From assembly GCF_024502345.1 (NCBI RefSeq), contig NZ_JALDNN010000001.1: a stretch of 64,000 bases of DNA. The stretch is one strand, 5' to 3'. This DNA is from Escherichia coli. Lineage in GTDB: Bacteria > Pseudomonadota > Gammaproteobacteria > Enterobacterales > Enterobacteriaceae. This document shows positions 17,999 through 20,900 of this stretch, in pieces. A model generated the notes under the pieces. The model was not told where the DNA came from. It saw only the letters and a program-made list of their open reading frames with translations, and ran no database searches. The position numbers and the translations under genes were made by a program. The first letter of the stretch is position 1. The number at the start of each line of letters is the position of its first letter.

Positions 17999-20900
17999 TC
18001 AGTTAATCGCGAAATAACTGCTATTCACCAGCAAATCCAGCGGTTGGGAATCGGCAATCACATCACCATAAATCAGATCGACGCCGATGCCAGAAAGCGT
18101 ATCCATCACTAAGGGTAAAACGACTGGCCCGGCGATGGTTTTCATCCCGAGTCGCTGAGCGTGCCCCTGAATAATCGTAATCAGCATCTCATCCATCAAA
18201 TTACCCTGCACGTTGGCGCATAACTCACCATCAAGTAGCAGGTAATCTGCCATATTCGCTTTCAGCGAGTTGAAGATTTGCAGATCGCGGCCCACCTGGC
18301 TGAGCACTATCCGACATCCCGCCAGCCGCAGTTTTTGCACGCTTACTGCGTGATCTAAAATCGCTTCAGCCGGAATAATCAGATGTAATAACCGTGGTGG
18401 TAGAGGGCTATTTTCCAGCTGCTCAAGCAGTTCATTCACCAGCGTGGCGCTACTCAAACCGGCAACGGAAAGAGGGAGGGCGATGCTTATGCCTTTACTG
18501 GCAACCGCTTTTGCGGCCTGCTGGAAAAATTCGTGGAATACCCGTCGGTCAAGAGCATGGCTAAGTGCCGGATCGCTGAAGCTACGACGAAATTTTTGTT
18601 CATCAATAATCTCGCCTTCGCAACTCCAGAGCTTAAGTGAAATCAGCCACAAATTACGCGCTTCCGGGATCCGCGGCGAAGCGACACCGTGGGCGATCAT
18701 CATCAACTGATTCTCTTTAATCATCCGCCACTGTTCATCAAGCGACATCGCCGCCCGTTCGCTATGTGCGGCAGCTTGCTGTGGTTCGTAAATCGTCACC
18801 CGGCCCCGGCCACCATTTTTGGAGGCATAACAGGCGATATCAGCCTGCGACATCACTTCAGCCGCCTGATGATTGTTGTCATCAATCAAGGTAATCCCGG
18901 CACTGGCACCTACCCGATGTACACGTCCTTCCCAGATAAAGTGATAGTCATTCACGGCACTGATAATGCGTGTAGCGATAAAACGCGCGCTTTCAACATT
19001 ACAGTCTGGTAGCAGCAGACCAAATTCATCCCCACCGAGTCGCGCCAGCACGTCGCTGGAACGCAGCATACTCAGCATTAACGACGCCAGTTCGCGCAGC
19101 AAAGCGTCACCCGCCGCATGCCCGGCGCTGTCATTCACCGCTTTAAAGCGATCAAGATCGATAAACACCAGGGCATGTCGCTGATGTGTACTGTTTACCG
19201 TTTGCAGCAGGATACGCAGTTGTTTCTCAAAACTGGCGCGATTGGCGAGATGCGTCAGTGCATCATGGGAGGCGCTGTAGCTCAGCTGGCGCAGCATTTT
19301 GCGTGATTCGGTAACGTCCTGAATCACCAGAACCGAACCAATATTGCTGCCGTCCAGAGTACTTAACGGCGTAATACTGTAATGCACGTCGTAGCTGCCG
19401 CCGCTCCGGCAGTGCAACACCACATCTTGTTCAATCGCGGAACGTGAGGTGTCGGCACTGTAAATGTTCTCCATCAGGGGACCATTGTCGCCAAAGGTAA
19501 TATGCAACACCGTCAGGAGCGGAACACCTAATGCTTCTTCCTGCGTCCAGCCGCTCATCTTCTCCGCCACTGGATTCATAAAGGTAATTTTCATTGCCAT
19601 ATCAATACAGACCACGGCTTCGCCGATGGAGTCCAGCGTAATGTGCAGGCGCTCTTTTTCCTAAAACAATGCCTCGTTAAGCTGTTTCACTTCGGTCATA
19701 TCCATATTGATGCCGAGGAGACGTTCGACTTCGCCTTCTTTATTCAGTACCCGGTTGGCGAGGGCGCGGATATGGCGAATACCGTCTTTTACGGTAATGC
19801 GAAATTCCAGTTTAAAGGGCGAGCGTGATTGCAACGAATCACGAATCACTTTTTCGGCATGCTGGCGATCTTCCGGCAGCACGCACTCGTACCACACCTG
19901 CCAGTTCGGTTTGATATGTGGAGGAATTTCATACAGCTCGAACATCCGCTTATCCCAGCTAAAAACATTCGGTTTCAACTCCCACTCCCAGATGCCAATC
20001 CCGCCCGCTTCGTTAGACAGCGTGATGCGCTCCATCAGTTGCTGATTGACCTGTTCGGTGCGTTTTAGCTCGTTAATGTCTTCAATCTGAGCGATAAAAT
20101 AGAGCGGCGTGCCATCCGTGTGGCGCACCAGTGAGACGGCAAGCAACGCCCAGACAACATCGCCATTGCGGTTGTAGTAGCGTTTTTCCATTGAATAGGT
20201 GTTTATTTCACCGCTTATCAGCTTTTCAACCTGTTGGAGATCTTTATTGAGATCCTCCGGCCAGGTCAGTTGCTGAAAGGTGAGTCCGCGCAGCTCTTCC
20301 TGACTGTACCCGAGAAACTGGCAGAGCGCTTTGTTGGTTTGCAGCCATTGTCCCTCGGTGCCCACTAACGCCATACCGATAGCGGAATATTCCATCGCGT
20401 TCCGAAAGCGGGTTTCGCTTTCGGAAATGTGTTTGCGTTCCGCACGAAAGGCATACATCACCATGGTCATGATGTTGGCGGGCAGCAGGATCAGCAAAAA
20501 CGGTAGCCACGGCATATGGCTCATCAGGTACGTACGCGGCGTAGCAAGCAGGGAGGGATCCGCGGCCATCATCAGCGACACCATCATCACCGTGGTAAGG
20601 AAGATCAAAAAGGCTTCCATTCGTGGCAGGCGCACGGCGCTCCACATCAACAGCACAATAATGAAAGTAAAAGGCCACGGCAGATACAGCATCGAAAGCC
20701 AGCTTAACGTCAGTGTGATGGCTAACGTGAGCAGCGACTCAAAAAGCAACCGTGGGTTGCGATGGCGCAGCAGATAGTGTGGTTTAAATAACAATCCCAG
20801 CGGCACCAGTGCCAGAGCGCCGATGGATTCTGACAGTACCCATATCAAAAATGCCCTGAGAGGATCGTCTCCGGGCGTCAGCAGGACAACCAGACCCCCC

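Follow-up and report, generated by a model that had tools for sequence, protein, structure and literature searches.

The dgcE (yegE) gene of this E. coli strain is interrupted by a single in-frame amber codon at position 552, where the ancestral codon is CAG. It is very probably a unitary pseudogene that arose through one recent spontaneous point mutation, with a predicted loss of DgcE output. The mutation, Q552*, was found in a 64,000-nucleotide stretch of DNA, which is called the window here. The nearest sampled relative carries an intact dgcE, and the amber allele was absent from all other sequences searched.

An amber codon inside dgcE

The identity of the gene was established from both its position and its sequence. 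The gene is flanked by udk and alkA, and the order yegD-alkA-dgcE-udk-dcd-asmA is the same in annotated genomes. Over 5,400 complete E. coli genomes have a gene annotated as "dgcE: diguanylate cyclase" that is matched by a 501-nt piece and by the full 3318-nt span, and dgcE is always one gene in these. DNA identity between the window and annotated dgcE was 98-99.9%. The name dgcE given in the initial annotation is therefore supported by the udk/alkA position and by this identity. The initial annotation had also noted that the whole span has the length of an intact gene. This was borne out by alignment, since the 3318 nt of the window align without gaps or indels to the 3318 nt of intact dgcE genes, and those annotated in AR436, S43, and NCTC9064 were all aligned gapless in this way.

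On the minus strand, the sequence around the stop reads ...AAC GAG GCA TTG TTT TAG GAA AAA GAG CGC CTG CAC ATT ACG CTG and continues with GAC TCC ATC GGC GAA GCC GTG GTC TGT ATT GAT ATG... The sequence, the ORF list, and the translation agree that this TAG ends a 551-codon ORF, as first described. Read in a single frame, 21316..17999 translates into 1105 codons, among which codon 552 is the only internal stop, and finishes with the usual ...SSYFAIN*. Due to the stop, the window does not hold an uninterrupted 1105-aa reading frame. The interval 19616..19663, which had been singled out, consists of the stop codon and the 45 nt that separate it from the next codon able to act as a start.

All parts of the DgcE architecture are encoded in the window: MASE1, three PAS domains, a GGDEF domain with its A-site and RxxD I-site, and a degenerate EAL domain. 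By the Pfam bounds, the stop sits in the linker that joins the second PAS domain to the third and so splits the protein into MASE1-PAS-PAS and PAS-GGDEF-EAL. The split had been described as falling between MASE1-PAS and PAS-GGDEF-EAL. The C-terminal part of this description holds, and the N-terminal part has to be corrected to MASE1-PAS-PAS. The frame does run unchanged into the PAS-GGDEF-EAL part, as had been claimed, and the translation shows the GGDEF and RSSD motifs intact. The 551-codon N-terminal piece has no catalytic domain and lacks GGDEF. The coordinates of these features are given in Table 1.

The two halves were also compared with NCBIfam NF007298, the DgcE-type equivalog (PRK09776). 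The N-terminal half matches profile positions 1-551 with 1003.5 bits and the C-terminal half matches positions 553-1111 with 1026.7 bits. The cut-off of this profile is 1135 bits, so each half alone falls below it and both together lie far above it. Judging from these matches, the two ORFs are adjoining parts of a single protein that lacks only position 552, and this pattern is not due to chance. In an annotation, both ORFs are better reported as a single dgcE pseudogene than as two genes.

Table 1. Features of the dgcE locus in the window. Domain bounds are those of Pfam on the intact AR436 protein, which is 99% identical to that of the window.
Feature	Position	Strand	Details
dgcE (yegE), whole	17999..21316	minus	1105 codons + TAA; pseudogene through one internal stop
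Recombination junction	21102..21461		5' end and promoter side of dgcE
N-terminal ORF, 551 codons	19664..21316 (19661..21316 with stop in the ORF list)	minus	ORF list, Pfam, NF007298
MASE1	20435..21262	minus	Codons 19-294
G9 homopolymer in MASE1 coding region	20895..20903	minus	Codons 138-141; in frame in the window
PAS1	20060..20410	minus	Codons 303-419
PAS2	19685..19963	minus	Codons 452-544
Premature amber stop TAG, codon 552	19661..19663	minus	Ancestral CAG (Gln); Q552*
In-frame remainder, 553 codons + TAA	17999..19660	minus	PAS3, GGDEF, degenerate EAL
ORF, 538 aa	17999..19615	minus	ORF list; begins at the first GTG past the stop
First start past the stop, GTG	19615..19613	minus	Weak SD, -3.0 kcal/mol; 45 nt downstream
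Best candidate restart, ATG (Met587)	19556..19558	minus	GGAGA upstream; anti-SD -6.6 kcal/mol; 105 nt past the stop
PAS3	19301..19654	minus	Codons 555-672
GGDEF domain	18803..19273	minus	Codons 682-838; RSSD I-site and GGDEF motif intact
Degenerate EAL domain	18053..18628	minus	Codons 897-1088
Second window-private dgcE change	18049	minus	GCC>TCC (A1090S), downstream of the stop

Ancestral state and age of the mutation

Alignment to reference dgcE, which the initial annotation had proposed, identified the ancestral codon as CAG and the lesion as a single-base nonsense change. Q552* is a C>T change on the coding strand, which corresponds to G>A at 19663 of the + strand. Codon 552 is CAG in all 30 of the other aligned dgcE alleles, which comprise a panel of 23 and seven close relatives. 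The comparison with AR436 likewise shows CAG. Orthologs and close relatives alike therefore have a sense codon at this position, as is expected for a unitary pseudogene.

The possibility that orthologs naturally end at this stop had been raised as well, and such orthologs were looked for and not found. A 51-mer centred on the TAG was found in 0 of the 5,426 complete RefSeq E. coli genomes. The CAG version of this 51-mer served as a positive control and retrieved 5,397 of these 5,426 genomes, with an exact match in 4,471, which makes the absence of the TAG version meaningful. A 31-mer with the TAG matched 0 metagenome contigs, compared to 47 with the CAG 31-mer, and had no matches among species-representative genomes. 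An exact-protein look-up found no record of the 551-aa product, which is a weak negative since NCBI's pipeline gives pseudogenes no protein. In a homology search, no 551-aa full-coverage homologue was seen among the matches listed, and many shortened E. coli DgcE fragments were, e.g. of 357 aa (101 members) and 323 aa (275 members). Programmed recoding and a natural split gene were both rejected because the stop was found in none of these genomes, metagenome contigs, or protein records, and even the nearest relative has CAG.

To date the mutation, close relatives were traced through contigs sharing the rare YegI and MdtB alleles. In an exact look-up, the MdtB, MdtC, MdtD, and YegI alleles of the window were all rare and all labelled E. 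coli. The AlkA, YegD, and AsmA alleles are too common for tracing (6,733, 8,013, and 878 blocks, respectively). The nearest relative was GCA_050022275.1 (L026/L044), in which dgcE is intact and encodes 1105 aa. Over window positions 1..21461, only three bases differ between the two: 17131 (alkA V30V), 18049 (dgcE A1090S), and 19663 (dgcE Q552*). Since there are only three differences and the dgcE gene of the relative is intact, Q552* is placed on the terminal branch and is very recent.

Long-term decay of dgcE was considered and rejected. When the window was compared to the 23-allele panel, four nonsynonymous private changes were counted to one synonymous (Fisher p = 0.014). This excess vanished because the close relatives leave only two private changes in dgcE. 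The dgcE pseudogene thus appears to be young and not decaying.

The two sides of the window differ in their ancestry. The right part is essentially identical to E. coli S43, with one difference within 21102..54199, and there is one difference to O112ab:H8 strains in 50000..64000. The O-antigen cluster of the strain is of the O112ab type and intact, and both this cluster and the colanic acid cluster are essentially identical to those of S43 / O112ab field isolates. For the left 25 kb of the window, the best match among complete E. coli genomes was 98.3%. S43 last differs from the window at 21101, GCA_050022275.1 first differs from it beyond dgcE at 21462, and the recombination junction lies between these two mismatches. 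By these mismatches, the sequence left of the junction belongs to the GCA_050022275.1 lineage and the sequence right of it is of S43 / O112ab ancestry. It is at dgcE, then, that a large imported segment with the colanic acid and O-antigen clusters came to its end. A Shigella origin was suspected, because the left side has no match above 98.3% among complete E. coli genomes and a second pseudogene lies close to dgcE in the window. This origin was rejected, since the 64 kb window is free of IS elements, the exact MdtB, MdtC, MdtD, and YegI alleles all carry the label E. coli, and close relatives were found within E. coli.

Predicted effect on DgcE output and alternative readings

In K-12, CsgD and matrix production are triggered at the top level by DgcE, and dgcE becomes null for both when GGDEF is changed to GGAAF, when MASE1 is deleted, or when the three PAS domains are all removed (Pfiffer et al. 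2019; PMC6510439). These alleles define the required parts of the protein, and neither of the halves left by Q552* has all of them. The K-12 alleles are clean in-frame laboratory deletions, in contrast to the natural allele, and none equals a stop at 552 (PMC6510439).

The proposed course of events starts with the C>T transition, which turns CAG, the codon for Gln552, into an amber stop in the linker from PAS2 to PAS3. Translation would then end at codon 551 and leave a membrane-anchored MASE1-PAS-PAS fragment without GGDEF. No DgcE-made c-di-GMP would be delivered to the PdeR/DgcM/MlrA module. Because of this, csgD would stay off, and curli and the pEtN-cellulose matrix would be strongly reduced. 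The C-terminal remainder is untranslated unless ribosomes read through the stop or restart. A polar effect is not expected, since alkA, the next gene downstream, is convergent with dgcE.

The closest precedent is the DgcE H486fs allele of soil-persistent phylogroup B1 E. coli, in which 1456delC leads to a stop at codon 490 (Somorin et al. 2018; PMC6029578). This allele abolishes CsgD and curli, and wild-type dgcE complements it fully (PMC6029578). H486fs and Q552* are alike in that both are natural, lineage-restricted, and located in the PAS region upstream of GGDEF, with the remaining gene in place. H486fs is a 1-bp deletion that co-occurs with PdeR E620K, whereas Q552* is a nonsense substitution in an O112ab background, 62 codons downstream of the H486fs stop. 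Curli loss has been shown for H486fs and is predicted here, so that the biofilm effect anticipated in the initial annotation has a direct precedent.

Based on the K-12 alleles, the fragment without GGDEF, the poor restarts, and the H486fs precedent, we expect that, with Q552*, CsgD, curli, and cellulose lose their input from DgcE. As DgcE is the top-level trigger, a strain with Q552* is expected to form little matrix at low temperature; this would bear on attachment, environmental persistence, and host interaction. Should other components of the curli pathway (csgD, rpoS, mlrA, pdeR) already be broken, Q552* would add no further phenotype.

A less likely explanation is that the gene is split but partly functional. 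A restart at Met587 or GTG568 would yield a soluble PAS-GGDEF-EAL fragment that makes some c-di-GMP, and Q552* would then rewire DgcE output and not abolish it. We scanned the in-frame start codons with anti-SD duplex energies, and the best candidate was the ATG of Met587, which has a Shine-Dalgarno-like GGAGA and is followed by intact GGDEF and RSSD motifs. However, the starts closest to the stop pair weakly with the anti-SD (-2 to -3 kcal/mol), and the scan found no start with a ribosome-binding site adjoining the stop, as would be seen with translational coupling. Every candidate start costs PAS3 its N-terminal 13-32 residues, and the predicted Met587 product lacks MASE1, PAS1, PAS2, and ~32 residues of PAS3. 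DgcE without MASE1 is expressed in K-12 yet null for CsgD and matrix (PMC6510439), and the natural truncation at codon 490 is a complete curli null (PMC6029578). Also, a restart that preserved function is at odds with the stop being conserved in no relative.

The dgcE gene of S. flexneri 2457T (S2255) bears on how far the loss extends. It has a stop at residue 366 (PMC11327459) and resembles Q552* in that the stop precedes an intact GGDEF, with possible internal starts downstream. This allele has been attributed to an IS110-family insertion plus a frameshift, and its genome has many degraded c-di-GMP genes and no curli (PMC11327459). Expression of this S. flexneri dgcE raised c-di-GMP and its deletion lowered c-di-GMP (PMC11327459). 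S2255 was thus shown to contribute to c-di-GMP. Since a dgcE gene with an earlier stop still raised c-di-GMP, calling Q552* a full null for total c-di-GMP output may be too strong, and a restart product may have residual cyclase activity. We favor the loss of DgcE input to the CsgD cascade over a restart that keeps this input.

It is quite improbable that Q552* is a sequencing or assembly error, with C (CAG) as the true base and dgcE intact. The allele is unique among everything searched, and the three private differences lie within 2.5 kb, two of them being C>A on the + strand, which would fit a poor local consensus. Against this, the change is a substitution and not a homopolymer indel, its context is non-repetitive, and independent dgcE knock-outs in sister strains show that such alleles do occur in the clone. 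The consensus appears to be of high quality, since the other ~60 kb of the window are essentially identical to independent assemblies. A methylation-linked base-calling artefact was rejected, as the context TTTCAGG contains no Dcm (CCWGG) or Dam (GATC) motif.

The suppressor tRNA supE inserts Gln at amber codons, and amber suppressors are rare in natural isolates. It is extremely doubtful that full-length DgcE is still made through a supE-type (glnV) suppressor or through high natural read-through: the ancestral residue is Gln, so that supE would return the exact wild-type protein, and the base following the stop is G, but the O112ab and colanic acid clusters are intact as in field isolates and unlike K-12 laboratory suppressor strains, and there is no conserved recoding signal because no relative has the stop. 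No tRNA genes are present in the window. Amber suppression is unlikely in a wild-type O112ab strain. A natural allele, a laboratory mutation, and a suppressor background had all been offered in the initial annotation; Q552* may have a laboratory origin, and a natural, recent loss-of-function allele fits best among the three.

Repeated loss of dgcE and its poly-G tract

Natural inactivation of dgcE is already documented in EAEC 042, other pathogenic E. coli, soil B1 strains, and Shigella. Pseudogenes of dgcE have been described in S. flexneri (PMC11327459), and nine strains of pathogenic E. coli are listed there as having a dgcE pseudogene (Povolotsky and Hengge 2016, as cited in PMC11327459). 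Q552* is a strain-specific new allele, predicted to be null, of a repeatedly lost gene, and in this respect it is ordinary. It adds one case to the documented natural loss of dgcE.

The coding region of MASE1 contains a poly-G tract, which is in frame in the window (Table 1). Most alleles have G5 or G6 at this place, interrupted by T. Among the fetched loci, 28 had G5/G6 and 10 had G7 to G10, giving 11 long-tract alleles with the window included. The tract was frameshifted in four of the 11 long-tract alleles (L015, L023, L024, and L028) vs 0 of the 28 short-tract alleles. Of the loci retrieved for other purposes, those with a disrupted dgcE are L007 (+1), L009 (-1, within a run of T), L015, L020, and L023. 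The disrupted fraction cannot be read as a frequency, since the sample over-represents unusual gene neighbourhoods because similar places appear only once. A long, variable coding homopolymer, as is typical of a contingency locus, is seen in the G9 of the window and in the G8, G9 with the next T lost, and G10 of its relatives. More distant dgcE alleles have G7 and G9TT at the tract.

Two sister strains carry different lesions at the tract. In GCA_001484235.1, G9 is shortened to G8 and a stop follows at codon 146. GCA_054852445.1 has lost 1 bp at the end of the tract, so that G9 is directly followed by CTG, and its stop is also at codon 146. Four sampled genomes, including that of the window, share an older pphC frameshift (-1), and three of these four have different, independent dgcE knock-outs, namely Q552* and the two tract lesions, where homopolymer errors in draft assemblies are possible. 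GCA_050022275.1 is the only one of the four with an intact dgcE.

Repeated loss of a gene in one clone could be the result of selection, relaxed constraint, or hypermutability. Here, the tract lengths and the different knock-outs hint at repeated, independent loss, which is only mildly notable and leaves the current understanding unchanged. We tentatively suggest, with considerable doubt, that dgcE is inactivated repeatedly and independently in this clone, either through selection in its niche against the curli/cellulose matrix that DgcE drives or through the acquired poly-G tract acting as a mutational ON/OFF switch. If the tract is such a switch atop the CsgD cascade, Q552* would be a "locked-off" version of it.

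An identical 101-mer at the tract was found in 29 complete genomes. The matches listed next span 102 nt with 99.0% identity, and EAEC 042 is among them. The band of tract matches at ≥99% holds up to about 196 complete genomes, with the lesion confirmed directly in two, 042 and L015. In E. coli 042, the tract is G9TT with an extra base, the stop is at codon 178, and RefSeq labels the gene "frameshifted". The dgcE genes of EAEC 042 and the window are both natural pseudogenes, found in E. coli strains that are otherwise typical, and of the same long poly-G class. The lesion in EAEC 042 is the extra base in the tract, whereas the tract of the window is in frame and its lesion is Q552*.

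Ancestry switch and the O-antigen region

To the left of the ancestry switch, which spans the 5' end of dgcE and the dgcE-udk intergenic region, the window tracks the lineage of GCA_050022275.1. To the right, it carries DNA like that of E. coli strain S43 and of O112ab strains across asmA, yegH, and the gene clusters for colanic acid and the O112ab O-antigen. The switch indicates that the O-antigen region was replaced on a large scale by horizontal transfer. The window's O112ab cluster is collinear with those of intact O112ab:H8 strains. That of S43, aligned to the window, breaks up into rearranged segments. 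In S43 (locus L053, NZ_CP010237.1, about 32344..37752), the annotation marks the O112ab wzx and wzy genes, along with one for a C5-epimerase, as partial pseudogenes. The S43 cluster is either rearranged or misassembled.

Positions of the features in the window
Feature	Position	Strand	Remarks
Sib antitoxin RNA	11240..12043	-	three copies in tandem, plus Ibs toxin ORFs; in the mdtA-yegL interval
pphC (yegK)	12846..13606	+	PP2C Ser/Thr phosphatase; -1 frameshift at about 12989
G9 homopolymer	20895..20903	-	dgcE codons 138-141
Ancestry switch	21102..21461		
JUMPstart elements	27141..27179, 52886..52924		upstream of colanic acid and O-antigen operons; Rfam
algC RNA motif	41656..41705		Rfam
naRNA4 (REP-type)	46176..46342		two copies; Rfam; in direct-repeat stretch, about 46109..46401

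Clustered differences and the pphC frameshift

Over window positions 1..21461, the only differences from the nearest relative are at 17131, 18049, and 19663, the last being the dgcE nonsense mutation. All three fall within 2.5 kb, at 1.4-4.3 kb outside the recombination junction, and on the + strand they are two C>A changes and one G>A change. Clustering of this kind by chance in about 64 kb has a rough probability of 0.005-0.02. A short, unsampled patch of recombination is one possible explanation of the cluster. Error-prone repair associated with the recombination junction is another, and it is also possible that the three differences are local consensus errors.

The lesion in pphC, GCAGGTAGC > GCAGTAGC, results in a stop at codon 66. 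An exact 55-mer containing it was absent from all complete RefSeq E. coli genomes. Since the frameshift is common to the window and its relatives L024, L026, and L028, it predates the dgcE nonsense mutation. The pphC stop overlaps the yegI start (13603..13607), and yegI follows pphC directly, without an intervening yegJ. In many genomes, S43 among them, yegJ (DUF2314) is inserted between the two genes. The gene order here exists in two alternative forms, with or without yegJ.

The dgcE poly-G tract

Where the window has G9, most dgcE alleles have a T-interrupted G5 or G6. Tract length varies in the relatives (G7, G8, G9, G10, and G9TT), and dgcE is frameshifted at the tract in the fetched loci L015, L023, L024, and L028 and in E. 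coli 042. It could be speculated that the window's in-frame G9T allele is a frame-restored descendant of the 042-type G9TT.

RNA elements

The JUMPstart, algC RNA motif, and naRNA4 matches are all expected in this part of the window. By the S43 annotation, the direct-repeat stretch lies between wzxC and wcaK. The other fetched strains have one, two, or three copies of Sib.
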